A DNA stretch of 55,089 nucleotides from a virus. Lineage: Duplodnaviria; Caudoviricetes. Under the pieces are notes generated by a model. It saw nothing but the letters and a program-made list of their open reading frames with translations, did no database searches and was not told the origin of the DNA. Location of the stretch: positions 1 through 55,089 of IMG/VR virus record IMGVR_UViG_3300028388_002422. One strand, 5' to 3'. This document shows, piece after piece, positions 12,520 to 41,719 of the stretch (position 1 is the stretch's first letter; each line of letters starts with the position of its first letter). Position numbers and translations under genes: made by a program.

Positions 12520-12843
12520 ATGACTGACAACATCAACCGCCCTAAGCACTACACAGAACACCCTTCTGGAGTTGAATGCATCCAGATAACCGAACACATG
12601 GGTTTCAACCTCGGCAACGCATTGAAGTATATCTGGCGCTGCGATCTAAAAGATGACGCCATCGAAGACTTGCGCAAAGCGATCTGGTACATCAACCGTG
12701 AGATCGAAAAGCGTCAGCAAGCCACGTTAAAGCAGGCCACGTTAAAGCAAGCCCATGTTAGTGGTGTGCCATACCGCGTGGATGTGAGCGGTATGCCATA
12801 CCGCGTGGATATGACCGATGATCTGCGCACACGAACGAGTTGA
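12520..12843 (+). CDS. DUF3310 protein (related to T7 gp1.7 nucleotide kinase / SaV)
   Basis: DNINRPKHY...ECI...GFNLGNALKYIWR...EDLRKAIWYI. Confidence 0.85.
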   Translation: MTDNINRPKHYTEHPSGVECIQITEHMGFNLGNALKYIWRCDLKDDAIEDLRKAIWYINREIEKRQQATLKQATLKQAHVSGVPYRVDVSGMPYRVDMTDDLRTRTS

Positions 12844-13201: not shown

Positions 13202-13231
13202 TTGTACAAAAGGTTACAATTGCGCTATAAT
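13202..13231 (+). promoter_or_regulatory. Promoter P4 (small RNA/tRNA unit)
   Basis: TTGTAC-N18-TATAAT. Confidence 0.8.
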
Positions 13232-13239
13232 TAAATTTT

Positions 13240-13333
13240 GTTAGCTAACTTGGCTTAGCCCCACTCCAAGAATGATATGTATGAATGCGTCTATCCTCAG
13301 AAGTTACAATCATTCGGGGGCTAAGTCTTTTTT
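13240..13333 (+). ncRNA. Candidate small hairpin RNA preceding the tRNA
   Basis: GGCTTAGCCCC/GGGGCTAAGTC and GAATGAT/ATCATTC stems, then T6; directly after P4. Confidence 0.5.
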
Positions 13334-13423
13334 GCCGGGGTGGTGGAATAGGTAGACACAGCAGACTTAAAATCTGCCGCTCAAAAGTTTAGCGTGCGGG
13401 TTCAAGTCCCGCCCCCGGCACCA
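13334..13423 (+). tRNA. tRNA-Leu (anticodon UAA)
   Basis: GCCGGGG/CCCCGGC acceptor stem, GCAGA-CTTAAAA-TCTGC anticodon arm, long variable arm, GGTTCAAGTCC, encoded CCA. Confidence 0.95.
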
Positions 13424-13438
13424 TATTTGAGGTATTTT

Positions 13439-14011
13439 GTGAATATCTTTGTATTAGATTTAAACTTTCAACTCAATGCGCAGTATCATGTTGATAGGCA
13501 CGTTGTAAAAATGCCAAGTGAAGCCGCACAAATGTTAGGCACGGCATATCGTTTAACACATGGCGAAGAGTTAGATGTTTATGTATTATTTAGTGACGGC
13601 TTCCATTTAAAAAAATGGTGGTTAATCGATTCAGACGAATATCGTTTAAGTAAAGGCAATATTTATTTGGATAGATGGAAAGTAATGGGGGTAGGCTATC
13701 CCCATCATCCATGCACACAATGGGTATTAGCAAGTAAAGCTAATTTTCGTTGGCTGCAGCAATATGCTCTTGCTTTAAATGCAGAGTGGAAATATCGTTA
13801 TGGACATACAAAAAATCACGCAAGTATTAATCGAATGATCCAAACGCCAACTCCTGACATTCCTGATATTGAACTTACGCTTTTTGCGCAAGCAATGCCA
13901 GATGAATGTAAAGATTCAGATCCAGTCATCGCTTATCGTAATTATTATTCTAAGCACAAGGGCCACTTGTTCGCTTGGAAGAAACGATCAAAACCTGACT
14001 GGTTAGACTAA
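13439..14011 (+). CDS. Pyrimidine-dimer DNA glycosylase / endonuclease V-like protein
   Basis: MNIFVLD...HVVKMPSEAAQML...HPCTQW...FAQAMPD...AYRNYY; GAGG RBS before GTG. Confidence 0.8.
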   Translation: MNIFVLDLNFQLNAQYHVDRHVVKMPSEAAQMLGTAYRLTHGEELDVYVLFSDGFHLKKWWLIDSDEYRLSKGNIYLDRWKVMGVGYPHHPCTQWVLASKANFRWLQQYALALNAEWKYRYGHTKNHASINRMIQTPTPDIPDIELTLFAQAMPDECKDSDPVIAYRNYYSKHKGHLFAWKKRSKPDWLD

Positions 14012-14029
14012 TCTCTTGTGGAGATAATT

Positions 14030-14284
14030 ATGCTTAGTAAAAGACAATACGAGGTTCTTAGCCATATTGAAGCACATCAGCGTCCAATTGAAAAATGGAT
14101 GCACACCGCAACGATTGCTTCTTTAATCAAGCATCGGTACGCAGTGGTGGTTTGTAATCGTAAATCAATTTCACTGAAAATTACCGATCTAGGTAAAATG
14201 GTTAGAACAAGCAAAGAATTGGATTACCGCGCAACGTTAAAAGATACGGCGGCTCTTCGGAGAAAATACCGTAATGTCGCGTGA
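14030..14284 (+). CDS. Hypothetical protein, winged-helix-like
   Basis: LSKRQYEVL...LKITDLGK; GGAG RBS. Confidence 0.6.
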   Translation: MLSKRQYEVLSHIEAHQRPIEKWMHTATIASLIKHRYAVVVCNRKSISLKITDLGKMVRTSKELDYRATLKDTAALRRKYRNVA

Positions 14285-14753
14285 TCCAATAATTTGTAGC
14301 TATGCCGAGGTTGTATCTTTCATCGAAGGATACATCCGGCGCGCTGAATCTCTCGAGTCTTTAATTGACGACATTGACCAGGGTGTCCTTGAGAAAGAAA
14401 TAAAAATCGAGGTGGAACTAGAGACAGCATCAAATGAGCTACTATTGGCTATAGAACGATTAAAAGAATTATCGAGCTTAGCTGATGACCGTCAAGCTCT
14501 TGTTTTGAAGACTTTCAATTTACAAAAAGAGTATTTTGCAAAGTTTAAAGAAATGGATGCTGTTGTAAATTCTGTTGTACAAGATGTTATTGATGATAGA
14601 AATGCAAAACTTGAAACAGACGTAGCACATACTAAAATATGTGAGAATCCAGAATGTAAAAAAGCTTTTGTACCTTCTACACCAACAGCCAAATATTGCA
14701 GCATGAAATGTAGTTCTAGAGTTAGATACCTGAGAATGAAAACAGCCAGATGA
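14274..14753 (+). CDS. Hypothetical protein with C-terminal zinc finger
   Basis: CENPECKKAF...KYCSMKC. Confidence 0.7.
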   Translation: MSRDPIICSYAEVVSFIEGYIRRAESLESLIDDIDQGVLEKEIKIEVELETASNELLLAIERLKELSSLADDRQALVLKTFNLQKEYFAKFKEMDAVVNSVVQDVIDDRNAKLETDVAHTKICENPECKKAFVPSTPTAKYCSMKCSSRVRYLRMKTAR

Positions 14754-15037
14754 GTAATGATAGTGACATTTCAGAAGCTTTCAAAGATTTAAGGAAAGCC
14801 GCGCAACAAAAACGTGAGCATAATCGTAGATATAGCACAAAGTTACTTTCTGCGAAAAGAATAAAATTTAGGTCTGCTAATAATGGGTACCATCTCATTA
14901 TTGCGGTCCATGAAGACACCATTGACTTCTGGCCTACAACAGGGCTATGGAAGATAAGGTCGACAAACACTAGTCGGCGCGGAGTGAGACAGTTGTTGGA
15001 GTATATACAAAATAATGAACCTCGCAGCACTGATTGA
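14750..15037 (+). CDS. Conserved phage hypothetical protein
   Basis: NNGYHLII...IDFWPTTGLW...RGVRQLL. Confidence 0.7.
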   Translation: MSNDSDISEAFKDLRKAAQQKREHNRRYSTKLLSAKRIKFRSANNGYHLIIAVHEDTIDFWPTTGLWKIRSTNTSRRGVRQLLEYIQNNEPRSTD

Positions 15038-15269
15038 TAAAGAAAACAAGGTAATTTATATTCCATTAACTGATGACATTTATGATCAAATACATTCTGT
15101 GCAATCATATGGTGAAAGATTTCTACCTGAGTTATTAATACTTGGTTCTGCGCCAGGTGAGGTAGAACTAAGCCCTCATTGGACTTGGAAGTTTATTGTA
15201 GATCCAGGTCTTTATGACTTAGATCAATCACTAACGGGGATACCGATGTATAAAGATCAACAACATTAG
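15015..15269 (+). CDS. Hypothetical protein
   Basis: GGAG upstream; in operon. Confidence 0.55.
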   Translation: MNLAALIDKENKVIYIPLTDDIYDQIHSVQSYGERFLPELLILGSAPGEVELSPHWTWKFIVDPGLYDLDQSLTGIPMYKDQQH

Positions 15270-20570: not shown

Positions 20571-21366
20571 TGTTGCCTTAGGCATCAAAATTGCAATGAA
20601 TGCGGGAACTATCACAGAGTTTCCGCGTCCTTATTTGGGAATGAGCCAACTCGGCAATCCTTGCGCGAGGCGCTTGTGGATGTACTTTCGTTGGGCTGCG
20701 CAAACCAAATATAAAAAGAAAAGTAGACGTATATTTGAACGCGGTGATATTGAAGAGCAACGTGTACTACAATATTGGCGTGAAATAGGAATAAAAATTG
20801 AAGATACTCAACGCACGTTAATTGGTTGTGATGGGCACCTTAAAGGACATACTGATGGTGTGCTACGAAATATACCTGGCATAGAAGATGTACCGATGGT
20901 CGGTGAAATAAAAAGTATGGCTCATAAATATTTTGTGCCACTAACTAAAAAAGGTTTAAAAGCGTCTAAACCTGAATATTATTCACAAGCCCAAATTTAC
21001 ATGCACTATGAAGGCCTGAAACATTGTTTACATCATACTACAAATAAAAATGACGAAGATTTCTACATTGAAATAATTGAATACGATAAAGATCATGCTG
21101 AAGACCTCGACAACAAAGCACGAGATATTATCTTTTCCGCTATGCCGCCTCGAAAAATATCAGAAGACCCTACCTACTGGATGTGTCAATGGTGTGATTT
21201 TTACGGGCCCTGCCAGCTTAACGATAACTTTCTGCGAACCTGTAGAACCTGTCAGCACTCAACACCTGCGCCTGGTGGTAAATGGGAATGTTCCGAGCAT
21301 AGTAAAGAGTTAACGATTGACGAGCAAAAAGCAGCTTGTACAAAATATGACTGTCTTAAAGTATGA
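20554..21366 (+). CDS. PD-(D/E)XK Cas4-like exonuclease
   Basis: YLGMSQLGNPCARRLW, GHTDG, GEIKS, YYSQAQIYM, C-terminal Cys clusters. Confidence 0.85.
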   Translation: MPNLSDVALGIKIAMNAGTITEFPRPYLGMSQLGNPCARRLWMYFRWAAQTKYKKKSRRIFERGDIEEQRVLQYWREIGIKIEDTQRTLIGCDGHLKGHTDGVLRNIPGIEDVPMVGEIKSMAHKYFVPLTKKGLKASKPEYYSQAQIYMHYEGLKHCLHHTTNKNDEDFYIEIIEYDKDHAEDLDNKARDIIFSAMPPRKISEDPTYWMCQWCDFYGPCQLNDNFLRTCRTCQHSTPAPGGKWECSEHSKELTIDEQKAACTKYDCLKV

Positions 21367-23084
21367 TCTTTGAACCTTTCTTTTACCAGGAAGAAGCCGT
21401 AAAAGCATTCTTCCGCTTTATTGGTAATAAACCGAATAAAGGAAAGAATCCACTTATTGTCGCACCGACAGGTTCAGGCAAGAGTCACATATTAGCTTTA
21501 ATTTGTGCTCGCATTATTGAAAAGTGGCCACATACTAATATAGTTATCCTTTCGCATACGCGAGATATACTAGTTCAAGACTACGAAAAACTCGTAGCGT
21601 ATCTTAGCGATGAGTCGTTGGTCGGTTTGTACAGTGCCGGCTTAAAACAACGAGATAAGCGCCAAATAACAGTAGCAGGAATACAATCTGTATACAAGAT
21701 GAAGTCATTATTCTCTGACACTAATCTTGTAATTGTTGATGAAGCGCATATGATTCCTCCAACTGGAGAAGGTCGCTATCGCACATTTCTTGCTAATAAC
21801 TCGCCGCAGTTTGTTTTAGGTTTAACTGCGACGCCCTATCGTTTAGGTACAGGTATGCTCACAGATGAAGGGCATATATTTGATCGTATCATTTATGATA
21901 TAGATATACGTAAATTAATTGATGAAGGTTTTTTGTCTAAATTAAAGTCGAAGCAACCTGACGCACGCATGGATACAAAAGGTATAAAGGTTGTTGCTGG
22001 TGATTATTCAGCTAAATCTCTGGCAGAAAAATTTGACAGAACTAATATTTCTGATCGCATCTGCGAAGAATTGTCTTACTATAAAGATAAGCGTAAACAT
22101 TGGCTAGTATTTGCAATTGATATTGATCACGCCGAGCATATAGCAGATAAATTAAATGAGTACGGTATTACAGCAGTTAGCGTACATAGTCGTCAAGATA
22201 ATTCTATTAATACTTCATTACTTCGCCTATATAAGGCAGGTCAAATCCAAGCTCTGGTAAATGTTGAAAAATACACAACTGGTTTTGATTTTCCTGGCAT
22301 TGATTTAATTGCAATGTTACGACCAACTAAATCACCTGTTTTACATGTACAAACTATAGGACGTGGGTTACGTGTTAATTATAATACTTCTGCTGTTGAC
22401 AATTTTGATATACACAATCGTAAGCATCGTATGTTGGCTATCGAACAATCAGATAAGCGCGATTGTCTAATCCTTGATTTCGCCGGAAATATCGAACGGC
22501 TTGGACCAATCGACAAAGTCGAAATTATTAAAAGAAAAGGCAAAGGTGGTGGAACTGCGCCCACAAAAACATGTCCAGACTGTTCAGAAATAGTTCCATT
22601 ACATATAATGGCCTGCCCTGATTGTGGGTATGAATGGCCAAAGATTGAAAAACTTGAATTACAAGCAACAAGTGCGTCAGTATTAAGTGAACCAAAAGCG
22701 CCAAAAACATATAATGTAAAACATGTTTACTATATAAAGCATAATAAAATTGGTGCAAGGCCCACGCTTAAAGTAACTTACGCTTGTGGTATAATGGATT
22801 CATTTAATGAATGGATTCATTTTGAAAATCCAAGACTGCGGAGTCATGCTCACCACTGGTGGAAATTCCGTGCTGGTACAGCTGCGCCGTCTACAGTAGA
22901 CGAGGCGTTAGAAAGAATTAACGAATTATCAACACCTGCCCAAGTAGAGGTAGATTTTAATGAGCGATGGCCAAAGATCAAGCGATACCACTTTAGGTAC
23001 GATAAACGGCTTGAAAACGTTAGACGCAGTCTTTCGTCGCCAAGCGGAATACCAAAGGGTGAAGAAGTATCCAATGGGACATGA
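21363..23084 (+). CDS. Superfamily 2 DEAH helicase (YejH/RadD-like)
   Basis: PTGSGKS, IVDEAH, GLTATP, TTGFD, QTIGRGLR, CPDC x2. Confidence 0.92.
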   Translation: MIFEPFFYQEEAVKAFFRFIGNKPNKGKNPLIVAPTGSGKSHILALICARIIEKWPHTNIVILSHTRDILVQDYEKLVAYLSDESLVGLYSAGLKQRDKRQITVAGIQSVYKMKSLFSDTNLVIVDEAHMIPPTGEGRYRTFLANNSPQFVLGLTATPYRLGTGMLTDEGHIFDRIIYDIDIRKLIDEGFLSKLKSKQPDARMDTKGIKVVAGDYSAKSLAEKFDRTNISDRICEELSYYKDKRKHWLVFAIDIDHAEHIADKLNEYGITAVSVHSRQDNSINTSLLRLYKAGQIQALVNVEKYTTGFDFPGIDLIAMLRPTKSPVLHVQTIGRGLRVNYNTSAVDNFDIHNRKHRMLAIEQSDKRDCLILDFAGNIERLGPIDKVEIIKRKGKGGGTAPTKTCPDCSEIVPLHIMACPDCGYEWPKIEKLELQATSASVLSEPKAPKTYNVKHVYYIKHNKIGARPTLKVTYACGIMDSFNEWIHFENPRLRSHAHHWWKFRAGTAAPSTVDEALERINELSTPAQVEVDFNERWPKIKRYHFRYDKRLENVRRSLSSPSGIPKGEEVSNGT

Positions 23085-23331
23085 TGCAGGCGAAGCAATT
23101 CGTAATAATTGTCTTGCTTTAATTGTAGAAGCAACAGAGGTGCTAAATGAAACACACTGGAAGCCGTGGAAGAAATATGACAACCCACCTAATCTTGATT
23201 TATTGCAAGAAGAAATCGCCGATTGTTTGGCCTTCATTTTTAATTTAGCATTTGAAGCGGGATTAGACGCGCAAGATTTAGCAAAAATATTGTATGATAA
23301 GCAAGATAAGAATATGGAGAGATTTCCATGA
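23011..23331 (+). CDS. MazG-fold dimeric dUTPase/dCTPase-like NTP pyrophosphatase
   Basis: VEATEVL, WKPWKK, EEIADCLAF; start uncertain (TTG 23011 or ATG 23074). Confidence 0.8.
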   Translation: MKTLDAVFRRQAEYQRVKKYPMGHDAGEAIRNNCLALIVEATEVLNETHWKPWKKYDNPPNLDLLQEEIADCLAFIFNLAFEAGLDAQDLAKILYDKQDKNMERFP

Positions 23332-23822
23332 GCGGATGTAAAAATGATTCAGACAAACCAATTGCTGGCACGGTACTGCAGGATTTTGGTAATGCGCTTA
23401 CAGCCGTATCAGTTGTTGGCACATTTGGTGCAAAAAAATATGCAAAAAGTAATTGGCTTAAAGTAGAAAGTGGCATCGAACGTTATACCGATGCAATGGC
23501 TCGTCATTTTTTAATTGAAGCTTATCAAACATACGACCCAGAATCAAATATTATTCATGCAGCGCACACGGCATGGAACGCTCTTGCACGTCTTGAATTG
23601 ATGCTGCGAGCCGGTGATAACATAATGGATATGGGTGACAAATATTATGAGCAAGCCAAAAACGACTTCCTCCAGGGTGTTGGACGACGAGAAGGAACAA
23701 ATACTCGCGGACAAGTTCCTTCGACAGTGCATCACTCACATCAGCCAGGCGTCAGAGACCCAGAAGAAGATTTTGATGAGGACATTATTATCACGACCTC
23801 CGGAAGCCCAACAAACACTTGA
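23328..23822 (+). CDS. dATP/dGTP diphosphohydrolase N-terminal domain protein (DUF5664)
   Basis: KNDSDKP...FGAKKY...NW...RYTDAMARH...DPES...HAAH.AWNAL. Confidence 0.85.
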   Translation: MSGCKNDSDKPIAGTVLQDFGNALTAVSVVGTFGAKKYAKSNWLKVESGIERYTDAMARHFLIEAYQTYDPESNIIHAAHTAWNALARLELMLRAGDNIMDMGDKYYEQAKNDFLQGVGRREGTNTRGQVPSTVHHSHQPGVRDPEEDFDEDIIITTSGSPTNT

Positions 23823-23943
23823 GGCAGCTTATTCTATTTGGAATGGTTTAAATCAAGCTGAGATAATGAAATTGCTTGGAATAGTTCAGAAGCAATTTGA
23901 TCAAGAAACATGGGAGTTTATATCTAGATGGCGAACGAAATAG
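23647..23943 (+). CDS. Hypothetical protein overlapping the DUF5664 C-terminus
   Basis: Alternate-frame ORF bridging to the next gene. Confidence 0.5.
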   Translation: MSKPKTTSSRVLDDEKEQILADKFLRQCITHISQASETQKKILMRTLLSRPPEAQQTLEAAYSIWNGLNQAEIMKLLGIVQKQFDQETWEFISRWRTK

Positions 23944-24632
23944 CTGAAATTGATAACCTTGTAACATCAGAAGATAGTTATGAAGAAATAAAACGAGTTG
24001 GTATTTTATATCAGAAAAAGACTGTTGAATCTATTCTTGCCTTTGCTCGTGTTGTATTTACATTGAAACAAAAATGTGATAAAGATGAAGACAAAGATTT
24101 TAGCCAAGCGGCAAACGAATTCTTTGGCCTCTCTCAATCCGGCGCAAGTCAGTTTGCAAAGACGGGACAGAATGCAGAAAAACTTGTTGCATATGCCCAA
24201 AGTTTACCGCCAAGCTCACGTACATTATATGAGCTCACGCAGCTATCCTTAACTGATCTTGATAAGCACATTAATACAGGTGATATCAATCCTAATAGTA
24301 CAGTCAATGATATCAAAGCGATCAAAGACACAATTAAAGACACAAAGAAAGCAAAAAAAGGAAAATCTGATGATGTCAATCCTTTCAACGTGGAAGCTGA
24401 GGACGAAGATGGAAATCCTATTGATGCAGAGTTGGTGGACGATGAGACAGGCGGAGAAGAAAATACTAAAGCACCAAAAAAATCAAAAGATAATAAAAAA
24501 ATGTCAATAGTGGAAGCACTTGCTATTTTTGATATTGACATGAATATGTTATATATGGAGCATCTGCAAAAAGGTAAGGATAAAGAAGTACTAGATAAAG
24601 CTTTCTTCATTATTACAGGTGAAAAGCTGTGA
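23928..24632 (+). CDS. Hypothetical protein, DUF3102-like N-terminus
   Basis: FFGLSQSGASQF...LPPSSRTLYEL; acidic/Lys-rich linker; GGGAG RBS. Confidence 0.6.
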   Translation: MANEIAEIDNLVTSEDSYEEIKRVGILYQKKTVESILAFARVVFTLKQKCDKDEDKDFSQAANEFFGLSQSGASQFAKTGQNAEKLVAYAQSLPPSSRTLYELTQLSLTDLDKHINTGDINPNSTVNDIKAIKDTIKDTKKAKKGKSDDVNPFNVEAEDEDGNPIDAELVDDETGGEENTKAPKKSKDNKKMSIVEALAIFDIDMNMLYMEHLQKGKDKEVLDKAFFIITGEKL

Positions 24633-25438
24633 TTAATTATCAAGCACTACTCACGGATGTATATCTGCGGGGGGAAGATCGGCCAAGTCGCACTGGGATT
24701 GGTACAAGGAGTTTGTTTGGAACTCGTCTTAGTTTTAATCTTGAAGAAGGTTTTCCAGCTGTAACAATTAAAAAATTATATTTTAAATCCGTAGCAGCGG
24801 AATTAGCAGGTTTCCTTGAAGGCACAGAAAGTGCTGCTCGCATGCGCGAATTGGGAACTAAGATTTGGGACGCAAATGCAAACGCAAAAACATGGCAAAA
24901 TAACCCTGCTTGTCGCGGGCCTGATGATATGGGTGTCGTTTATGGCAGTCTCTGGCGCAGCTTTCATGGTGTTGACCAGCTTGACAGATTGGTTAGAACA
25001 CTTATTGAAAATCCCTACGACAGAAGACAAATTGTTACTGCTTGGGACCCCAGTGAGTCTCGTCAGTGCTTACCTCCTTGTCATATATTCTGGCAAACCT
25101 ATCTTAGGGAAGGTCACCTTCTTGATCTCCAGTTCTATATGCGCTCTGTTGATCTATTCTTGGGCTTGCCGTTTGACATCGCATCCTATGCTTTGCTCAT
25201 GCACATAATTGCACAGCAAGTTGATTTGGGCGTTGGTCGGCTTACAATTATTATGGGTGATACTCATATTTATCACAGCCATTTTGAACAAGTAGAACTT
25301 GTTCTTTGGCGTAAACCGTATAAACTACCGCGGCTGGATCTGTGTGAAAGCGCTTCCATTGATAATTTCCATCCAGATATGGCACGTCTTGTGGACTATG
25401 AACATCATCCTGCGGTGGAGGCACCCATGGCCGTGTAA
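24629..25438 (+). CDS. thyA: Thymidylate synthase-family enzyme with Asn-to-Asp change (possible dCMP methyltransferase)
   Basis: SRTGIGT, LPPCH, RSVDLFLGLPFDIASY, GDTHIY. Confidence 0.9.
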   Translation: MINYQALLTDVYLRGEDRPSRTGIGTRSLFGTRLSFNLEEGFPAVTIKKLYFKSVAAELAGFLEGTESAARMRELGTKIWDANANAKTWQNNPACRGPDDMGVVYGSLWRSFHGVDQLDRLVRTLIENPYDRRQIVTAWDPSESRQCLPPCHIFWQTYLREGHLLDLQFYMRSVDLFLGLPFDIASYALLMHIIAQQVDLGVGRLTIIMGDTHIYHSHFEQVELVLWRKPYKLPRLDLCESASIDNFHPDMARLVDYEHHPAVEAPMAV

Positions 25439-25690
25439 ATGTTCACTGAACTATTAAAAGCAAAACGTAAATGGTATGGCAAAGAAGGTAATTATCCTAC
25501 TGCTATTAAAATGACAAAAAGGGCTTATAAAGAACTAGATGAAGAGGCTAAAGTTTTAAAAATTGGCATTAATCAATCTTATACAGGATACAGTGTTAAC
25601 GGAATGCGTATTTTTATTGACGATAAACAAAAAGAATTGTTTATTTTTGGTTATCATTATAAAGATAAATTTGAGCTACAGGTGTTTTAA
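25439..25690 (+). CDS. Hypothetical protein
   Basis: Abuts both neighbours. Confidence 0.55.
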   Translation: MFTELLKAKRKWYGKEGNYPTAIKMTKRAYKELDEEAKVLKIGINQSYTGYSVNGMRIFIDDKQKELFIFGYHYKDKFELQVF

Positions 25691-25872
25691 TGAAATTCAA
25701 AGTAGGTGACAGAGTAGTTAAAGTAACAGGCGATTATTCAATAATTGGTACTATTATCGCGGCGTTTAAAACATTATGTGGTAACGAACGTTACGTACTA
25801 GAAGCCGAAGTTCCGCCAGGTCTTTTACATATTTACGGACCAAATAATTTGGAACCTTACCGTGAGACCTAA
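25690..25872 (+). CDS. Small SH3-like hypothetical protein
   Basis: MKFKVGDRVVK...RYVLE...PGLLHIY. Confidence 0.65.
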   Translation: MKFKVGDRVVKVTGDYSIIGTIIAAFKTLCGNERYVLEAEVPPGLLHIYGPNNLEPYRET

Positions 25873-26317
25873 TATACATCAGTATTATATAGACATGGCG
25901 TTTATTGCTGCGTCTCGCGCCGGATGCCCTAAGCGTAAAGTCGGTGCAATAATAACTGATAAAAATAATCGTGTATTAAGCATAGGTTATAATTCGCCTC
26001 CACGGAATCTACCAACTTGTTTTGAAGTTCCTTGCGGCGCAGGAATAGACGACAATCCTTGTATCGCAGCACACGCAGAGATCGCAGCTTTAACTGCGTG
26101 CCGCTCAATACAAGAAGCACATAATATTTATATTACATGTAGTCCCTGTGTTGATTGCACTAAAGCTGTCATGACTACACCAATACAAAATTTATATTTT
26201 GCAGAGTTTCACAAAACGTGGAGCAGGTCTAAACTTATATGGACAGGCCATTGGGAGCTAACACCATATTATGAAATTCCTAACACAAATGAAGTCATGC
26301 GACGTCGTGACGGTTGA
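25862..26317 (+). CDS. dCMP deaminase family protein
   Basis: CPKRKVGAII, IGYN, HAEIAAL, SPCVDC. Confidence 0.9.
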   Translation: MRPNIHQYYIDMAFIAASRAGCPKRKVGAIITDKNNRVLSIGYNSPPRNLPTCFEVPCGAGIDDNPCIAAHAEIAALTACRSIQEAHNIYITCSPCVDCTKAVMTTPIQNLYFAEFHKTWSRSKLIWTGHWELTPYYEIPNTNEVMRRRDG

Positions 26318-27122
26318 TGATGGCACAATACAAGCTATCAAAGGACCCATTGCTTATTTTGGCTATCACCCAGCATTTAAAAAGAAGCAATTTGCTGTTG
26401 ATGCCAAAATGTTTGTTGCCGCACTTAAGAAATTCAAAGGCGACTTCTTTGTCTCGCAGTCAGTCGATAGAGTGGTATTTGCCGATGACCAGCAGGAAGT
26501 TGATTTTGTTCACCAACCAGCGGAAATCTTGCTTGACCAGTCTCGTATCGATTGGTGTCATTTGCCTGGTTTTGCTAACGCCTGGAATATTGCACAGAAA
26601 TTTATTAGCGCCGACTTTCCCGGTGTTCGAGTTGAAGACTATAATTATTTAGAAGTTGTATCCGATGCGTCAATTGTAAGAATTGCAACCGAAACCAACG
26701 GTATAAACGGTATTTTTGCATCTGTTAAGCTACCTGCTGGGGTTAAATTTATATCACATTATAACAATAAATTATGGTTCAGTGTTACACCAACTGACAT
26801 AATTGTTGTTAATGCACTTGATGTTGTGTTCCCAACAACAAATCGTTATTTTAACGATTGGGAACAGTATACAATGGAGTCTATTCCATATATCCTGCGG
26901 GAACGATTTGTAGAAACCGATCAAACAGTTTTTTCAAATAACGAGGTGCAATTTGTACAAAAAGAAAAAGCAACAGCTGTCGTGGAAGGCGTCTCTGGTA
27001 CTGGCACTTATAGCGGCAAGTTGTTTCGTAATATTATTGAGCATGGCCAACGGTATGCTTTTTTAGATCAATTTGTTGCTTTTGAATCTGACTGTATTAA
27101 AGGTATAGTTGCCCGTGTTTAA
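26271..27122 (+). CDS. Hypothetical protein, possibly a divergent sliding clamp
   Basis: 283 aa alpha/beta protein directly before the polymerase; FAVDAKMFVAAL, FPT motifs. Confidence 0.45.
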   Translation: MKFLTQMKSCDVVTVDDGTIQAIKGPIAYFGYHPAFKKKQFAVDAKMFVAALKKFKGDFFVSQSVDRVVFADDQQEVDFVHQPAEILLDQSRIDWCHLPGFANAWNIAQKFISADFPGVRVEDYNYLEVVSDASIVRIATETNGINGIFASVKLPAGVKFISHYNNKLWFSVTPTDIIVVNALDVVFPTTNRYFNDWEQYTMESIPYILRERFVETDQTVFSNNEVQFVQKEKATAVVEGVSGTGTYSGKLFRNIIEHGQRYAFLDQFVAFESDCIKGIVARV

Positions 27123-29136
27123 CATTAAACCATTTAAGGACATTAAACGTGGATCGAGAATTACTTTACCTCAATATAATAGATCGTGGAGGCCACCACG
27201 CGACTTCCCCAATCTTGATGCCGCGAGCACTCTGGCAATTGATACAGAAACGTGGGATCCAGAACTTATTGAAATCGGCCCAGGATGGGGTCGTAAAGTT
27301 GGACATATCGTTGGAGTCTCAATCGCTACAAATGATCACAGCTGGTACTTCCCGGTCCGACACACAATTGACAAAGAAGACAATCTCGAACCAGAAGCCG
27401 TCTTTAAATTTCTTAAAGATTACCTTGAAAGGGATACGACCAAAGTCGGAGCTAATTTAATTTATGACTGCGGGTGGTTCCTTACTGAAGGTATTCGTGT
27501 AGGCGGGCCAAAATACGATGTGCAATTTGCAGAGGCTATATTAGACGGTAACGCATATAGCTATGCGCTAGATAATATAGCTAAACACTATCTCGGTGAA
27601 GGTAAAGTATCAAATGACTTATATGAGTGGAGTGCTAGGGCATACGGTGGTAAACCCGACGGGACCCAACGGGCCAACATATATCGTTGTCCACCAGCAT
27701 TGGTCGGACCCTACGCAGAATCTGATGCCTATCTCCCTTTTCAAATCTTACGTCGGCAGTGGACCCAACTCGACCTTGCTAATTTGGTGGACGTCTTCAA
27801 ATTGGAATGTGAGCTCATTGATGTATTGGTTGACACCCGTTGGCGAGGAATGTGTATCTCAGAAGAACGCGCCGCTATCGCTGAACGAAACCTTGATAAG
27901 GTCATTAATAAGCAACAAAAAGAATTAAATGATATTGCCGGCTTTCGTGTTAATGTAAATGCTGGGCAAACTGATCTTGCTCAATTATATGATAAATTAG
28001 GAATAGAATACAATGTCACAGAAAAAGGAAACCCTTCCTTTACTCGAGACTGGCTCGAGCAACAAATTGATCCAGCTTCTCATCTCATTGTGGACATTAG
28101 GAAGAGCACTAAAGCGCGTGACACGTTTATTAAAAATGCAATCCTGGATAAACACACCAACGGAAGAGTTTACCCGTCATTCCATCCACTCAAGGGCGAA
28201 GGAGGTGGCGCGGTCACAGGTCGCTTTGCGGCGAGCAATCCGCCAGTACAACAGATACCTAGTCGTGACAAAGTCCTCGCCCCAATCATTCGTTCCTGCT
28301 TCGTACCAGAAGAAGGAATGGAATGGGTAAAAGCTGACTTTAGTTCAATTGAACTGCGTATGATGGCACATTATAGTGGCGATGCGCGGCTCATAAAACA
28401 ATATAATGATGATCCATTTACTGATTATCATGCTTATGTAGGTAAAATGCTAGGTGGTAAACTCCCTCGTATAGCTGTTAAAACAATGAACTTTTCATTG
28501 ATTTATGGTGGCGGGGTACGCACAATAAGTGTACAGATGGCGCGAATCTTTAGTAAAGAACAGCGTATCAAAATGATAAAGGAGCTCGGACACAAGCCAC
28601 TAACTAATACTGCTGAACAATTAGCTATTCTATTTATGAATATCTATTTTGAAAAATTCCCAATAGCTAAAGATTTGTTAGATGAATGTTCAGCTATTGC
28701 CACGGCTTCTGGCCAAATGCGTACAATACTTAATCGGCGGACAACATTCGATACGTGGGAGCCAGCAAGAGGTAAAGGAATACCGCTGCGTTTGGATTTG
28801 GCACAAGCTCGTTATGGACGGGCTATTCGTCGTGCTTATACGTATAAAGCATTAAATTATCGCTTACAAGGTTCTGCTGCTGACTTGATTAAGAAAGGCA
28901 TGGTGAACGCCTACAAAGCTGGTTTATTTAAATCGATACCTTTACATGGAACAGTTCATGATGAATTATGTCTTTCTTATCATCCCGATTTATTGCCTCA
29001 ATTACGTCAATTAATTGAGTGTATGGAAACAGCAATAGAATTTAATGTGCCCATTATTATGGAACCAGATAAAGGTCCAACATGGGCAGATGCAAAAGAA
29101 CCCATCGATATTGGAGAAAGAACATGGCTGAATTAA
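27109..29136 (+). CDS. polA: Family A DNA polymerase with 3'-5' exonuclease
   Basis: AIDTET, YAESDA, TGRF, ADFSSIELR, KTMNFSLIYG, LQGSAAD, TVHDEL. Confidence 0.95.
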   Translation: MPVFNIKPFKDIKRGSRITLPQYNRSWRPPRDFPNLDAASTLAIDTETWDPELIEIGPGWGRKVGHIVGVSIATNDHSWYFPVRHTIDKEDNLEPEAVFKFLKDYLERDTTKVGANLIYDCGWFLTEGIRVGGPKYDVQFAEAILDGNAYSYALDNIAKHYLGEGKVSNDLYEWSARAYGGKPDGTQRANIYRCPPALVGPYAESDAYLPFQILRRQWTQLDLANLVDVFKLECELIDVLVDTRWRGMCISEERAAIAERNLDKVINKQQKELNDIAGFRVNVNAGQTDLAQLYDKLGIEYNVTEKGNPSFTRDWLEQQIDPASHLIVDIRKSTKARDTFIKNAILDKHTNGRVYPSFHPLKGEGGGAVTGRFAASNPPVQQIPSRDKVLAPIIRSCFVPEEGMEWVKADFSSIELRMMAHYSGDARLIKQYNDDPFTDYHAYVGKMLGGKLPRIAVKTMNFSLIYGGGVRTISVQMARIFSKEQRIKMIKELGHKPLTNTAEQLAILFMNIYFEKFPIAKDLLDECSAIATASGQMRTILNRRTTFDTWEPARGKGIPLRLDLAQARYGRAIRRAYTYKALNYRLQGSAADLIKKGMVNAYKAGLFKSIPLHGTVHDELCLSYHPDLLPQLRQLIECMETAIEFNVPIIMEPDKGPTWADAKEPIDIGERTWLN

Positions 29137-32649: not shown

Positions 32650-35600
32650 CTAGCCGCGATCAAATTCACCAGTACCTTTTCTTCCTCTACCCATAATAGC
32701 ACTTAATTGATATATATCAACAGCAAAGGTGCCAAGAGTATCAGTTCCATCACTCTGTTGCTGCGCTAAAGTATATGTGTAAGCAGTAGATGCTGATACA
32801 GAATATGTACCTAATACAGCTTGAGTTGATGTGTTAACTATGTCTATTTCATATGCTTCTACATCTTCATTTATTGGTCCGCCAACATTATCAGTGAGAT
32901 TATTATCCCCGCCTAAACTTCCACCTTTTCTTGTTCTGCGGGTCCATGATATATCAATATCATCACCGTCTAATACAACGTCTATTTGAATCGGACTATA
33001 TGGCAATAATTGTTGCCCAGATAGATATACTTCGTTTCTTTGAACATCAGCTATTGTTTCATAGCTTTTTAGCGTTTTGTAATAAACAGTTGTATTCAGC
33101 TGGTTTATTTGAAGTGAATGGCGAGTAATATAAGCAGGGTCAAGTTTGATTAAATAATCTTTTTCTTCATGTGAATCAATATATACATTTGTGCCACGTC
33201 TTCCACGTAATAAATTACTTAATTGATATATTGTTTGTGTTCCTGATGAAATGAGTGTGACAGTAGCAGCATTTAATAATTCCCATCTTCCTTGTCGTCC
33301 ATAAGCAAAAGCATTTATTGTTGGGTCAGCCTCTATTGCTGCTTTTGTGGAACTAGCTATTGTTTTATTATTGTATGCTTGTACAACGATAGTTTCTACG
33401 TCGTCCCAATTTTCCCATGTTGTCGAATTACTTGCTTCTTGGACAAGACCAACAAATGGTTGATCAGCTTGCGAGTCAATTGGAAAATAATTTACGTCAT
33501 CAAAAGAATAAAAATGTGTTACTTGAGGGAAGTTATCGCCATAAATGTAACTTGTTAAATATGGTCCTGGGTGGTCAAGATCAATGTCTTGTAATAATGT
33601 AACATCAATTAATTCAGTTCTTATTGGTAAAGAATAAGCTATATTGCTTAAAAAGGCTTCATTACCAAAAGCAGTAGCATTTGTCGTAGAAAATTCTGCT
33701 GCGTCAGTTATTCCTTTACATTTTAGTATCCAATTAACGCCACGATCAATACTAACAATTCTTACTCTTTCATTTACGCCATTTACTGGTAATTCTATTA
33801 TGTCTGTTGGTTCAAGATACGAATAAATAATTGGTAAATAAAATTCATAAACAGTTGTGTCAACCATTTGATTATGTAATCTTGCTACTGTATCTACTGC
33901 TTGTTGATCAGATAGAAGTAGAGCAAGTTCAAATGAACTTTTTGATAAAGCATCTCCAGTAGCATAATAAGATTGAGCAATACTTCTTGTTAATATATTC
34001 TCCAATGAAATGTAATTCATTTCATAAATTTTTGGTACAGACAAATGGTCTGGTTTAACTATTTTTACTAATGGATAGTTACTTGTTGGTCCAGACGGTT
34101 CAGTAACGTCTAAGTGTTCGGGATTTATTGTTACGTCAGTATTGCCTCCTCTTAATTTAAATTTTATTTTGTTATCACTTTGGTAACCATCTGCATTAGC
34201 AAATAATAAAAGAGCTTCAATTGCTGCTCTTGCGCTATATGTTCTATTTTTTACGTAGCCATAAATATATGATGATGTGAGACCTGTAGTATCAATTTCA
34301 TTTGTTGTTAATCCAACTTTTTGACATAGGTCAGATACTATATCACTTACTGCAATTTGGCTAGTTGTTACATATGCTGTTACTTCTCGCATTAAATATT
34401 CATAATCAGGAGCTTTATATTCCGTTAATGAGCACCAAAATGAATTTCTGCCAGGATAGTAAACAGCTGGTCTACCATGTAAACCATTCGCTGGATATTT
34501 TTTGACAGCATGGCTGTATATATTTATTCCAAAAACAGAGTCTAACGCAAGCATAAAATATACTTCGTTTGAATTTATGCTATAATCAAATACACCATCA
34601 CCATCAAAAGTGCTCCAAGTAAGGTTATTCCCAGAATCATAACCTTCTCTGTATGCATTAAAGTGATTAATAATGCTGCCATCATCTGGATTCATCATTA
34701 ATACACCAACAGTGTATCCAGAAGCAACAGGCGCTGTGCATTTGTATCCAAACCAAACTTCATTTGTTTCTTTTATATATACGCCACGTCTTACACCAAA
34801 AGCAAAATCTGCTGAAGTTACACCAAAATTAAGATAATCTGGAAAATAATTTTCATCGGCGAATGGATGAGATAGACGGAATATATTTCCGTTCGCGTCA
34901 AATTTAAAAAGCTCATAATCTATTTGATTAGAATCTTTTCCAACAAAACACCACTCAGCTTCAAACCAATTGACACAAGTAGCGGTTCTTGCTAATACAC
35001 TACTATATAAGTTGCTTGTCCCGGCATTGGTGTTTATGTTATAGGCTGTATTTACCTCTGGTAAAACTAAGCCTGTGTTTCCTTTACTTAAAACCCAAAA
35101 ACTGACGCTGAGGTTTCTAACACCACAAGGAACGTGAGAAGCTGATTGTTCGCCTAAAAAAACACCACCATCAGCTTGACTCCATGATGTTGTTCCTGTA
35201 TGCTTTCCAGAAGGATATTCAATACGATGTACTGTTGCTGTAAAGCCAGTATCTCTTTCACTTATATAAAAAGCATCAGGATAAAGTTCATAACTAATAC
35301 CAGTTAAAATATCAAAGCGGCTGTCCCATGTTGAATTTAATATAGTATCAGTTGCTGTTTCATTGATAATTGAAACATTACGTGAGCCCATGTCCGTCAT
35401 GTAAACTGGCTCAGTTGCCACGGCAGGAGTAAAGTTATGAGTTACAGTTGTTAAAAAAACATTTTCACTTGGATGACGGAGAACAGAAACAGCATATATA
35501 TTTTCAACACTACCACCATAATAAATACCTAGATCAATATCTGAGCTTGTATTAGATACTTCTGTGGACCAAAATTCTGCTTCAATATTTGGTAGTCTAT

Positions 35601-36201
35601 TTGCATAATCATTCAATAATAAAGATTCAAAAACAATCACTGTTTGATTTTTATAAGATGGACAATTGCCTTCGCCGACATCTGCTTCAATCAAAGAATC
35701 AATTTCATTTGTGGACGGCGTGTGAACCGTGAAATTAACGCCATCGCCATCAACAGCAGTTTGTGACTCTCCGGATTGATCTAAAACCAATTTTCCATTT
35801 AACCACATTCTGCGTGGTTGCGCTTCAAACATACCAAAGGAAACAGCAAATGTTTGGTAGTATTCATATCTTGTATATGTTTGCTTGGGCGCACCGCCAC
35901 CCTTGCCACCGCCTGATGATGTTTCTATTTTTACTTCTTTTACTTCATCTAACCATATAGGCACGCCTCTAATTCTACCACCGCCCCATAGCTCTGGAAT
36001 GTCCGCGCCTTCTGGCGTTCCAGCATACGTTGAATCATTTAATCTTGGCCCTTCAATATGTAAACCTTTCGGCTGGTCTAATAAACCGCCAATAACAGAG
36101 CCAGCCATCCAGCCCCATGTAGACGCAGCTACGCCAAGAAAAGTTCCACCAATTGACCCACCAATTGTAGCACCGAGAGCAGATATTGCAATTGTTGCCA
36201 T
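32650..36201 (-). CDS. Tail tip / central fibre protein B (GTA megatron-like, Phage-tail_3)
   Basis: Hydrophobic Gly-rich N-terminus, EGPRLND, GGGKGGG, NRLPNIEAE, LLRGRRGT, ISWTRRTR. Confidence 0.88.
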   Translation of the reverse strand: MATIAISALGATIGGSIGGTFLGVAASTWGWMAGSVIGGLLDQPKGLHIEGPRLNDSTYAGTPEGADIPELWGGGRIRGVPIWLDEVKEVKIETSSGGGKGGGAPKQTYTRYEYYQTFAVSFGMFEAQPRRMWLNGKLVLDQSGESQTAVDGDGVNFTVHTPSTNEIDSLIEADVGEGNCPSYKNQTVIVFESLLLNDYANRLPNIEAEFWSTEVSNTSSDIDLGIYYGGSVENIYAVSVLRHPSENVFLTTVTHNFTPAVATEPVYMTDMGSRNVSIINETATDTILNSTWDSRFDILTGISYELYPDAFYISERDTGFTATVHRIEYPSGKHTGTTSWSQADGGVFLGEQSASHVPCGVRNLSVSFWVLSKGNTGLVLPEVNTAYNINTNAGTSNLYSSVLARTATCVNWFEAEWCFVGKDSNQIDYELFKFDANGNIFRLSHPFADENYFPDYLNFGVTSADFAFGVRRGVYIKETNEVWFGYKCTAPVASGYTVGVLMMNPDDGSIINHFNAYREGYDSGNNLTWSTFDGDGVFDYSINSNEVYFMLALDSVFGINIYSHAVKKYPANGLHGRPAVYYPGRNSFWCSLTEYKAPDYEYLMREVTAYVTTSQIAVSDIVSDLCQKVGLTTNEIDTTGLTSSYIYGYVKNRTYSARAAIEALLLFANADGYQSDNKIKFKLRGGNTDVTINPEHLDVTEPSGPTSNYPLVKIVKPDHLSVPKIYEMNYISLENILTRSIAQSYYATGDALSKSSFELALLLSDQQAVDTVARLHNQMVDTTVYEFYLPIIYSYLEPTDIIELPVNGVNERVRIVSIDRGVNWILKCKGITDAAEFSTTNATAFGNEAFLSNIAYSLPIRTELIDVTLLQDIDLDHPGPYLTSYIYGDNFPQVTHFYSFDDVNYFPIDSQADQPFVGLVQEASNSTTWENWDDVETIVVQAYNNKTIASSTKAAIEADPTINAFAYGRQGRWELLNAATVTLISSGTQTIYQLSNLLRGRRGTNVYIDSHEEKDYLIKLDPAYITRHSLQINQLNTTVYYKTLKSYETIADVQRNEVYLSGQQLLPYSPIQIDVVLDGDDIDISWTRRTRKGGSLGGDNNLTDNVGGPINEDVEAYEIDIVNTSTQAVLGTYSVSASTAYTYTLAQQQSDGTDTLGTFAVDIYQLSAIMGRGRKGTGEFDRG

Positions 36202-39200
36202 TAAATTTCCCCAAACATTGGTTCAGTCAATGTTTCAATATCTGTCAAAGATAATTCTTTTGACCAAATTAAAATTGATTGCAAATAAGAATAAGCTGAT
36301 GAAGATGGCGAGGTAGTTGAATAGAATGTTGCACCATTATTTGTTAAATGCCAATGCATATTACATGTATCTGGTACGCCAGAAGCTGCATCTGTCCAAT
36401 CAATAGTGTGCGTTGCGCCTGACGACGTTATTACAACGACATTATCAACATAAACTTTGAATCCATTTGTTGCGGAACATGTTATTGCAATATGATATGT
36501 TCTAAAAGCAGTAAATGAACGAGTAGTCCCTTCACTATAGTCAGTCCATGTACCTGTACCGGTGCCAATACGTAATGTTAAACCATTTGTTGTGTCATAA
36601 AATAGATGAATACCTTTTTTAACTGCGCCGTCCCAACCTTTTGGTTCAACACTAAATAAATAATGTCCATTATTGAAGTTTGCCCAGTTATCAGTAGTAA
36701 ATGCCCAATGATAACTTATATCTTGTACTTTCCATGTTGACGGTATATTTTCAAAGCCAAATGCGCAAAGATCTGGGAAGCCACTAATACTTACACTTCT
36801 TCTAGTAAATAAGCAAAGTCCATGTTGACTGCCGCTAACTAATAATACTTTTAAATCTGGACCAAATTCGGAATTTGTTAATAATCCAGTATATGTTGTA
36901 ACATCATTGTCTACTGGATGAAACGCTAGTAAATTATCTGGATCATAATTTTTAATCGCTGTACGCATTGCAGTAAAAAAATTATTACCAATTGTTGCTA
37001 AATTTGAATGACTAAATGAAGCACTTGTACTTATACCAACTACACCAATACTTATATTACTTGGCGCTTCATTTTGGGTATTATCCATATCATTCCCAAT
37101 CATATCGTCATAAGCTGCGTTGTTTGTTTGAGTTTGATATGTTGAAGCATATGTGCTATGACCTGTGTTATAAGCTACGGAGTTTGTTTGTATTCCAAAA
37201 TTGAATGATCTTGTTGCATACTCGCCAACAAGATTAAACCAAATAGATATAATTTGAAATCTACTTCTATAACCGGACGGAGATTCACCAGTTAAGCTCA
37301 TACTAATGCCTGTTCCAACTGAGCCCGATTCAGGCGCATGAAACACTGAAATAGACGTTCCTCTATGTCGTATTTGGAATCTATAGCTTGCTGCACCTTG
37401 GGTGCACTCTAATATATACCCAGTATTTGGAGTAGAAGTTTTTTGATCAAATATATATGCAAATGCAATATGTGCTTGAGTTTTACCTGTTGTTAAATCA
37501 CGAATTGTACGATCTAAATTAAGACCATCACCGGCGGCTGCGCCTGGGTTTTGCATCGTCCCACGGCCATCACCAAATATTGTGCTTGCATTTACATTTG
37601 TATATGTTCCATAAGAATTTCCACTAATATAATCAAAAGCACTGCCACTGGCTGTAACGTCATCTAGGCCAAGTAGCATGTCTATTTCAGGCAGTTCAAT
37701 AAATTCGTTTAATAAAGTTCCCCATCCTTTATCTATTATGCTGCATTCTTCCCATCCTCTGCCTACAACTGCTGAATTTTGATAAACACAATATTTTAAC
37801 TTACCATAAGAATCAGCGCCGTCTGTTGTTTGTTGAGCATCAGTATATATAAGAGCAGTTGTTGACGATTGGAATGAATTTAGAAGTATATCTCCAATGG
37901 TTTTTATATCAATATCATAACTTTCAGAGTCTTCAGATAAACTGCCGCCTACATTATCAATTACACCACTATCACCACCGAGTGACCCGCCTTTTCTGGT
38001 TCGTCTTGTCCAAGTTAAGTTATAATCTCCAGCGTCTTCAGTTGCAGACAATTGTATTGGGCTATATGGTTTTAATGGATAGCCTAATATTACATGCTCT
38101 TCTTCTACTGCTTCTGATAAATACGTTCCTTTTGGCACTATTTTATAATAAATAGTTTGCTCATATTGTGAATTAAGCAAGACATGTCTTACAATACTTC
38201 CATTTGAAGTAAGTACAACAACAAGATCCCATGAATCATGGGTATCTATAAAATTATTAGTTCCTCTGCGGCCACGTAATAAACCAGAGATTTGATAAAT
38301 TTTTGGATTAGCTCGGAGCTGTGTTGCAGTTTCAAAATTTATATATTCCCATCTATTATTTTTGCCATAAGCTATTGAATTAATAGTCGGGTCTGCTTCA
38401 ATAGCTGCTTTTGTTGAACTAGATAATGTAACGTCAGAATTATAAAAAGTAATAGTTATTGTATTGTTATCATCCCAATCTTCCCATGCGGCGCCACTAA
38501 TATTTGATGATGATTCAACATAACCAACGTCTGGTTGCTCGGTTATTGCACTTACTAAATTATAATTAACATTATCAAATGAATAATAAATTGAACTTGG
38601 AGTAAAATTACTACTATATGAATATGCCGTTAAATAAGGTCCTGGGTGATCTTTATCAATATCGCGCAATAATGGCGAGTCAAAAATTAGAAGGTAGGTG
38701 TTAACACCTAAAGAAATATTTGATAAAAATTCTTCAGAACCAGCAGCAGATGTATTTGATATATAATTTTCTGCTGCGTCTAATACAGCCTCACAATTCA
38801 TTATCCAATTCGTTCCTCGTGTAATCTTTGTTAATCTTACACGATGATTGATACCATCAATTGGTATTTCTATTACGTCAGTTGGCTCAAGATTAAAATA
38901 TTTTACAGGTAATTTGAAACTATAAACAATTGATTCAATTATTTGTTGATGCAGTTCTGCTGCTAAATCTGTCGCATCTTGGTCATAAAGAGCAACACTA
39001 ATTTCAATTGTTTTCTTTCCATAAGATCTCGAAACAGCGGTATATGACTGAGCTATAGCGATTGTATAATTGTTATCAGCAGAACGATATTTAATTTCAA
39101 ATTGCCGCGGGATTTCCAATTCCATTGGAATATTAACTGTTGTTTGTTCTTCTTTTTGTATTGGACCAGATAATTCAACACAATTAATTTCATCAGCAGA

Positions 39201-41296: not shown

Positions 41297-41719
41297 CTAA
41301 TCCTCTATATTTAAATAGTCAAAAACACCACGTAGACGTTTTTGCCATCTTTTATCAAATCTTGTTTTTACAACATTTTTTTCAGGTTCAAATGCATGAA
41401 TAAAAAAATCATTGCCTAAAGATATTCCAACATGTTGAGGAATACGTCCATAAGCAAAAAGTAATATATTTCCTTTTGTAAATTTATTATTTACAAATGG
41501 CACTCTTTTTAAGTGTCTATCAATTTTTAATTGTAATGCTTTTTGTGGATCCATGCTATAAGTTGTATCATCAATATAATTATTCGTGTCTGCGTTAAGT
41601 GACTTGCCAATACAATAAACTAATCCTATACAATCTACACCATGTTTTGATCGTCCTTGATGAGCAAATGGCACACCTAACCAGTCAAAAGATTCATTGA
41701 TTATTTCATCTCTAGTCAT
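41297..41719 (-). CDS. NlpC/P60 tail-associated peptidase
   Basis: WLGVPFAHQGR...GVDCIGL...QHVGI...FIHA. Confidence 0.9.
   Translation of the reverse strand: MTRDEIINESFDWLGVPFAHQGRSKHGVDCIGLVYCIGKSLNADTNNYIDDTTYSMDPQKALQLKIDRHLKRVPFVNNKFTKGNILLFAYGRIPQHVGISLGNDFFIHAFEPEKNVVKTRFDKRWQKRLRGVFDYLNIED

Follow-up and report, generated by a model that had tools for sequence, protein, structure and literature searches.

The window analysed here, the whole 55,089-base viral record IMGVR_UViG_3300028388_002422, carries on its + strand a ThyA-family gene (24629–25438; 269 amino acids; PF00303) that we predict to encode a C5-methyltransferase of deoxycytidine monophosphate (dCMP), that is, a synthase of 5-methyl-dCMP (5mdCMP). 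Its open reading frame (ORF) starts with GTG, its sequence includes MRSVDLFLGLPFDIASY and CLPPCH, and the motif RSVDLFLGLPFDIASY is present in the encoded protein. The GTG start overlaps the stop codon of the preceding ORF (GTGA), with AGGTGA a few bases upstream. The Pfam profile PF00303 covers residues 3–269 of the protein, corresponding to profile positions 2–266 of 266 (E = 7.9e-81), and solved thymidylate synthase (TS) chains in the PDB are matched at E = 5e-60. The record contains no other PF00303 match, and a search of the record for ThyX (PF02511) gave no match.

For residue numbering, the protein was aligned to E. coli K-12 ThyA (NC_000913.3), the enzymes of phages Xp12 and PaMx74, and T4 gp42. 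Asp183, encoded by GAC at 25175–25177 (+), occupies the pyrimidine-specificity position of E. coli Asn177, the residue expected in a canonical TS acting on deoxyuridine monophosphate (dUMP; EC 2.1.1.45). An earlier note on this DNA had pointed out this Asp together with an intact catalytic PPCH, and both observations hold, since Cys151-His152 (TGT CAT, 25079–25084, +) align with the catalytic Cys146 and His147. Cys147-Leu148 (25067–25072, +; TGC at 25067–25069 for Cys147) correspond to Ala142 and Leu143, Met171 (ATG, 25139–25141, +) to Gln165, and Asp175 to Asp169; E. coli numbering is used hereafter. Relative to E. coli ThyA, the enzyme thus carries the substitutions Ala142Cys, Gln165Met, Cys168Val and Asn177Asp, while Arg21, Glu58, Trp80, Tyr94, Arg126/127, Leu143, Cys146, His147, Arg166, Ser167, Asp169, Gly173, Phe176, His207 and Tyr209 are unchanged, so that the catalytic cysteine and the general acid/base network (Glu58, Tyr94, His147) are all present. 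The C-terminus, …EAPMAV, resembles the …KAPVAI of ThyA, a tail that closes the active site for hydride transfer. Judged from these residues and from the genes around it, the protein is probably a ThyA fold retargeted from dUMP to dCMP, within a phage module that would build DNA containing 5-methylcytosine (5mC).

Residues bearing on substrate and product

Published diagnostics link the active-site residues of such enzymes to substrate and product: N177D makes dCMP the preferred substrate, a bulky hydrophobic residue at position 143 (Leu) goes with a methyl product and L143D/E with a hydroxymethyl product, and D169N is the mark of 5-hydroxy-dCMP synthases (PMC13326640). With Asp177, Leu143 and Asp169, the enzyme encoded in the window shows the methylase pattern, and T4 gp42, which aligns with Asp143 and Asp177, agrees with the same rule. 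The precedents that the earlier note had named are likewise found in the literature, namely that Asp mutants of E. coli Asn177 and L. casei Asn229 methylate dCMP, that T4 dCMP hydroxymethylase has Asp at this position and that Xp12 makes 5mdCMP with a TS homolog; our alignment places Asp in this column in gp42 and in the Xp12 and PaMx74 enzymes. That Leu143 and Asp169 are retained, as is the ThyA C-terminal tail, speaks against a hydroxymethyl or 5-hydroxy product.

It is accordingly improbable that the enzyme acts like T4 gp42, as a dCMP hydroxymethylase (5hmdCMP synthase), with phage DNA containing 5-hydroxymethylcytosine or a derivative of it. Asp177 and Met165 are common to the two proteins, and the deaminases described in a 2024 preprint act on 5-hydroxymethyl-deoxycytidine as well (10.1101/2024.12.05.627091), but position 143 holds Leu where T4 gp42 has an acidic residue, Asp. 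Moreover, His147 and the full ThyA tail are kept, a putative dihydrofolate reductase (DHFR) homolog adjoins the gene, and no glycosyl- or carbamoyl-transferase was found among the 39 ORFs, a part of those in the record, that were scanned with Pfam. Another C5 product, for example 5-hydroxy-dCMP or one not yet described, appears more improbable still. TS homologs have recently been shown to be more versatile than expected (PMC13326640), and two of the seven Asp-type enzymes (those with Asp177) expressed in the 2024 preprint gave no 5-methyl-deoxycytidine (5mdC); the D169N exchange of 5-hydroxy-dCMP synthases of the RB69 gp48 type is absent here, however, and Asp169 is found in 87/87 Asp-type homologs.

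Conservation and phylogeny of the Asp form

These homologs come from a set of the 120 best matches in a collection of 5.8 billion proteins, the window's own protein included, in which the Asn177 column holds Asp in 87 sequences and Asn in 33 (Asn-type). Besides the invariant Asp169, the Asp-type homologs have Leu143 in 87/87, His147 in 86/87, Cys142 in 85/87, and Met or Ile at position 165 in 84/87; Ala142Cys is typical of the window's Asp clade. That Asp177 reflects a sequencing or assembly error, or that the gene is decaying, is scarcely credible. A single base change would turn AAC into GAC, the error that the earlier note had named as able to overturn its reading, but 86 of the other 119 best matches also carry Asp, and this conservation excludes it. 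In addition, the full-length ORF is intact and coupled in translation to the gene next to it, and synteny is kept in the viral loci L001, L043 and L046.

At position 165, where T4 gp42 has Met and Xp12 and PaMx74 have Leu, each of the three kinds of dCMP-using enzyme compared (the window clade, Xp12/PaMx74 and T4 gp42) has a hydrophobic residue instead of Gln. Val168 is not specific to the Asp clade, being carried by T4-like td enzymes too. A scan of all columns for differential conservation ranked positions including 191, 246, 247 and 163 at the top, which probably reflects the narrow ancestry of the Asn-type set.

The earlier note had also called for a phylogeny of the Asp-type enzymes. In a FastTree analysis of 123 rows, from which T4 gp42 was left out, the window protein falls within starred all-Asp groups, a single starred clade unites 30 Asn-type proteins, E. 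coli ThyA among them, and the Asn/Asp label needs three changes. A second tree of 157 rows, built without L017, L027, L028, L038 and L042 (partial or insert-bearing) and without the near-duplicates L010, L015, L019, L020 and L047, needs four changes, and starred branches force at least three of these; the switch may thus have occurred more than once. The Xp12 and T4 gp42 branches are long and their placement was flagged as unreliable, so that the window clade may share its switch with Xp12 or may have acquired it separately. Four Asn-type proteins with Met165 and Val168 (P0039, P0064, P0090 and P0120) nest among Asp-type sequences in the 123-row tree; they may have reverted to dUMP use or be intermediates.

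The exact Asp-type motif pattern matched a single contig in the species-genome collection scanned, which indicates that the form is essentially viral; this contig (locus L048) belongs to a metagenome-assembled genome (MAG) of Robiginitomaculum. Against cultured phages, a megablast search with 10 kb of the window gave no match. The best tblastn match of the whole protein was 45.4% identical, with both top-listed matches, Pantoea phage Phynn and the T4-like phage IME08, being Asn-type, and a 41-residue query around the motif reached 70.7% over its full length as the best among the matches listed, one further record falling in the 80–90% identity band. Automatic annotation treats Asp-type enzymes as plain TS, as the earlier note had anticipated. 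The window protein scores 229.7 against NCBIfam TIGR03284, 'thymidylate synthase' (cut-off 108.35), JGI labels the Asp-type homologs P0021, P0029 and P0042 'thymidylate synthase', and the Xp12 and PaMx74 enzymes are named thymidylate synthase or thyA in their records.

Some TS genes in the comparison set are interrupted. The Asp-type genes L038:4603-5961 (record G005) and L042:533-1924 (G009) each form one open frame, of 453 and 464 amino acids respectively, in which an in-frame insert of ~180 amino acids, possibly an intein or an inserted domain, interrupts the Pfam match at profile position 104/105; the L038 insert matched no Pfam family. Similarly, the Asn-type TS gene L028 (record G040, 34698–36608), a 655-amino-acid open frame in a 306-kb phage genome, has its family match split in two by ~1 kb. 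Record G023 (locus L010) carries a canonical Asn-type TS at 43.8 kb and, in the region 13221–15197, a second, weak TS-like match (E = 6.9e-8, 246-amino-acid frame) ~1.3 kb upstream of its dCMP-family deaminase; this second match may be a divergent pyrimidine-modifying TS homolog.

A deaminase paired with the Asp-type enzyme

A dCMP-family zinc deaminase gene (25862–26317, +; 151 amino acids) starts 424 bases downstream of the ThyA-family gene. It matches PF00383 (E = 1.5e-17), the dCMP deaminase family phrog_174 (E = 8.5e-30) and the PDB dCMP deaminases 2hvv (E = 1.7e-13) and 7fh4 (E = 5.2e-7), and a MafB19-type deaminase match lies in the same neighbourhood. By analogy with published systems, its product is predicted to turn 5-methyl-dC nucleotides into thymidine nucleotides. 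The record combines a linked deaminase with the absence of ThyX and of any TS gene of the canonical, Asn-bearing dUMP type.

This pairing recurs in other viral records. Scanning IMG/VR with a degenerate motif pattern gave 13 Asp-type loci which, with L001, make 14 records, each with a single TS gene. A PF00383 gene is found in 11/14 of them, and in 5/5 of those at least 90% complete, and in 8/14 the deaminase gene is no more than 1 kb from the TS gene. As a control we used 27 Asn-type IMG/VR records, L027 having been dropped as partial. PF00383 occurs in 6/27 of these and within 1 kb in 0/27, the nearest being 5.5 kb away (Fisher p = 3e-5 for adjacency), a comparison in which many of the control records are small fragments and the TS gene touches the contig end in several. 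Among metagenome contigs, the Asp-type pattern found 24 loci, two of which are contigs of the IMG/VR loci; the 22 new ones were searched with a hidden Markov model (HMM) built from the deaminases found in this analysis. A deaminase ORF lies at most 1 kb downstream on the same strand in 10/22, and in one locus at 7 kb. Seven of the 12 loci lacking an adjacent deaminase have less than 1 kb of downstream sequence, and in the five with enough of it the HMM search found no deaminase.

The same neighbourhood also bears on the possibility that the enzyme is still mainly or partly a TS, acting on both dUMP and dCMP, with an ordinary dCMP deaminase feeding dUMP and the DNA containing little or only partial 5mC. 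The protein is 45% identical to genuine phage td enzymes and matches solved TS structures at E ~1e-60, all folate and phosphate ligands checked are canonical, it is the sole TS in the record, and TS, dCMP deaminase and DHFR together make up the classical dTMP route as well. We nevertheless consider this unlikely, given that Asn-to-Asp mutagenesis switches the preference to dCMP (cited in papers including PMC13326640), that a large viral clade has kept Asp together with the changes at 142 and 165, that tight adjacency of TS and deaminase is seen in Asp-type but not in Asn-type viral records, and that hardly any cellular genome contains the Asp motif.

A DfrB-like ORF and the wider gene neighbourhood

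Between the predicted methylase gene and the deaminase gene lies an ORF of 60 amino acids (25690–25872, +), a putative homolog of the DfrB/R67-like (type II) DHFRs, with a PF06442 match below the cut-off and a PDB profile match. A profile of six sequences, comprising this ORF, four database homologs and an ORF from locus L038, matches the PDB type 2 DHFRs 2p4t (E = 2e-5) and 1vie (E = 1.1e-3). The L038 member (L038:1775-1945) is a related DfrB-like ORF in another Asp-type TS locus. At the position of the VQIY pore motif the window has LHIY, all six aligned homologs share H-I/V-Y, and the 2p4t chain also has HIY; according to the DfrB paper, no VQIY residue is strictly essential. A putative DHFR homolog next to the TS fits the proposed chemistry because the methylation reaction releases dihydrofolate, and DfrB homologs beside ThyA genes have already been reported in tailed phages (PMC12486381). 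The remaining ORF of this interval (25439–25690, +; 83 amino acids) has no Pfam or PHROG family and is kept at the same position in L001 with 43% identity.

Upstream, a helicase gene (21363–23084, +) is followed by one for an all-alpha nucleoside triphosphate (NTP) pyrophosphohydrolase of the dUTPase_2 family (22960–23331, +; PF08761, E = 2.1e-12; phrog_173, E = 4.3e-12), whose product, a candidate dCTPase/dUTPase, would provide dCMP and prevent dCTP from entering the DNA. A dUTPase_2-type gene is also found upstream of the TS gene in L001, L043 and L046, and these loci share with the window the order helicase, pyrophosphatase, TS, deaminase, polymerase A. A second nucleotide-pyrophosphatase-like gene (23328–23822, +) matches PF18909 (dGTP_diPhyd_N, E = 1.3e-19). 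The 2-aminoadenine (Z) genome that this family might suggest was rejected, as the record has no PurZ-like PF00709 match and the gene is thus not part of a 2-aminoadenine pathway. Immediately before the predicted methylase gene lies an ORF of 234 amino acids (23928–24632, +) with a DUF3102-like lead from its Atlas model. The deaminase gene is overlapped by 47 bases by the start of an ORF of 283 amino acids (26271–27122, +) that has no Pfam or PHROG family; its Atlas model superposes on DNA polymerase III beta sliding clamps (template-modelling score ~0.8), though it is shorter. With a sliding-clamp-like fold and a DUF3102-like domain, respectively, the 283- and 234-residue neighbours were rejected as kinases. 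A family A DNA polymerase with a 3′–5′ exonuclease follows (27109–29136, +; PF00476, E = 1.2e-55; PF01612, E = 1.2e-4).

The record also has a + strand replication block, in which the helicase and polymerase A are accompanied by a primase-like protein of 908 amino acids, an AAA_24 protein, DUF669, a Cas4-like exonuclease, a resolvase-like protein and a ligase. The record is 93% complete by CheckV estimate, with a GC content of 36–45%, and its structural genes include a terminase, a portal-like DUF4055 protein, a Gp13-like capsid protein, a tail tube and a tail-tip module like that of gene transfer agents (GTAs). The tail-tip genes, at 41297–44195 (−) and 32650–36201 (−), encode DUF2460, a phiJL001 Gp84-like hub, BR0599, NlpC/P60 and an Rcc01698-like C-terminus. 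Such GTA-type modules are common in phages of Alphaproteobacteria; together with the Robiginitomaculum MAG match, the tail tip is a host lead only. An ORF of 205 amino acids at 13394–14011 (+) gives a borderline match to PF03013, pyrimidine dimer DNA glycosylase (E = 7.1e-5; 23.5 bits against a cut-off of 23), and also matches a PHROG named DNA binding protein.

Proposed pathway and its appraisal

In the pathway we propose, one or two NTP pyrophosphatases would convert dCTP (and dUTP) to monophosphates, and the Asp-type enzyme would methylate dCMP with 5,10-methylene-tetrahydrofolate, yielding 5mdCMP and dihydrofolate, the latter to be recycled by the small DfrB-like reductase. Kinases would raise 5mdCMP to the triphosphate, polymerase A would incorporate 5mC into the phage DNA in place of C, and the adjacent deaminase would turn some of the 5-methyl-dC nucleotides into thymidine nucleotides; on this proposal, no dUMP-using TS is needed. 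Post-replicative methylation was rejected as a source of 5mC, as the record has no match to C5 DNA methyltransferases (PF00145). The only lead to a phage nucleotide kinase in the record is a DUF3310 protein (12520–12843, +; PF11753, E = 1.8e-13) that matches several PHROGs named 'nucleotide kinase' (for example phrog_236, E = 9.2e-32); that it phosphorylates 5mdCMP is speculation.

Several observations weigh against this reading. Over 225 aligned residues, the window enzyme shares only 32% identity with that of Xp12, whose activity is proven, and therefore comes from a different lineage. Because its His147 is retained, in contrast to Pro in Xp12 and Thr in T4 gp42, it may not belong to the subtype behind the association reported in MetaGPA, and the two preprint enzymes that gave no 5mdC were of Asp type as well (10.1101/2024.12.05.627091). 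Met165 is also present in eight Asn-type proteins (P0039, P0064, P0090, P0106, P0120, L002, L006 and L012) and is thus not a strict marker. The deaminase is absent from 3/14 Asp-type viral records and lies 15–108 kb away in three large genomes. The PF06442 match of the 60-residue ORF (E = 2.5e-4, 21.3 bits) falls below the cut-off of 25. Lastly, no deoxynucleoside monophosphate kinase was identified, the record containing no Thymidylate_kin match.

On balance, the prediction of a dCMP methylase is supported as the best inference. It is not new, because the signature and the deaminase pairing have already been published and partly bench-tested (PMC8670742; bioRxiv 10.1101/2024.12.05.627091). 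If it is true, an uncultured siphovirus-like phage swaps cytosine for 5mC, which would blunt many restriction systems and alter the behaviour of its DNA in sequencing and cloning, and the record is mis-annotated where it is called plain thyA. The paired deaminase would be a candidate 5mC-selective deaminase, a kind now used for methylation sequencing, and the enzyme a clean natural test of how few changes convert a TS into a dCMP methylase. With the principle already published and no new mechanism involved, the gain is a correct annotation and a new ThyA-like representative.

More tentatively, with the balance tilting somewhat against it, the window enzyme could represent a large, near-purely viral lineage of dCMP methylases that is distinct from that of Xp12 and much closer to ordinary ThyA, with Asn177Asp, Gln165Met and Ala142Cys as its only first-shell changes, in which thymidylate is made wholly via the deaminase and a DfrB-type reductase closes the folate cycle. 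Such a lineage would be the natural counterpart of the N177D/N229D laboratory mutants, and its phages would need no dUMP as a DNA precursor.

Comparison with known systems

The nearest chemical analogues are the engineered dCMP methylases L. casei N229D and E. coli N177D, in which a ThyA with His147 and the C-terminal tail carries one Asn-to-Asp change; these are laboratory point mutants, whereas the natural clade has also altered positions 142 and 165. Compared with E. coli ThyA itself, eight of the 12 residues within 6 Å of C5, as listed in the NAR 2026 paper, are identical (W80, Y94, L143, C146, H147, S167, D169 and G173), and the other four differ (N177D, Q165M, A142C and C168V). The canonical T4-like td is 45% identical to the window enzyme. 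T4 gp42 shares Asp177, Met165 and the catalytic Cys, but differs in Asp143, Thr147, gaps at E. coli positions 263–264 of the tail and a different end, and is very distant, on a long branch.

Xp12 and PaMx74, in whose DNA C is reported to be fully replaced by 5mC, have consecutive TS, deaminase and DHFR genes, upstream of which lies a hydrolase or pyrophosphatase gene; the AXL1 paper describes a row of DHFR, dCMP deaminase, TS and pyrophosphohydrolase genes in Xp12 relatives (PMC9206674). Their enzymes resemble that of the window in the ThyA fold, Asp177, a hydrophobic residue at 165, the catalytic Cys, Glu58, Tyr94 and Asp169. They differ in Pro147, Tyr176, a C-terminus ending in …PEVIE and a FolA-type DHFR, where the window has His147, Phe176, the ThyA tail and the DfrB-like mini-DHFR.

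The closest systems in gene content are those of metaviromes. In MetaGPA (eLife 2021, PMC8670742), TS homologs on modified-cytosine contigs were reported to be mostly Asp177, with position 147 also differing between modified and unmodified contigs. The 2024 preprint reports deaminase genes within 3 kb of the TS gene in 104/149 cases on modified contigs versus 17/277 on unmodified ones, and names TS, MafB19-type deaminase, PRA-PH, and polymerase A with its exonuclease as co-localised domains. It further describes 5mdC formation in vivo by 5/7 deaminase-linked Asp-type TS and by the Xp12 TS, and a deaminase that preferred 5mC, and its authors propose that such phages obtain dTTP through deamination of 5mdCTP (10.1101/2024.12.05.627091). 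The window shares with these systems of uncultured phages Asp177, the deaminase, the MafB19-type match, a pyrophosphohydrolase, and polymerase A with its exonuclease. It differs at position 147, flagged there and unchanged here, and in its pyrophosphatases, which are of the dUTPase_2 and PF18909 families instead of PRA-PH. The module in the window matches the published 5mC-phage module and is therefore a further instance of a described system.

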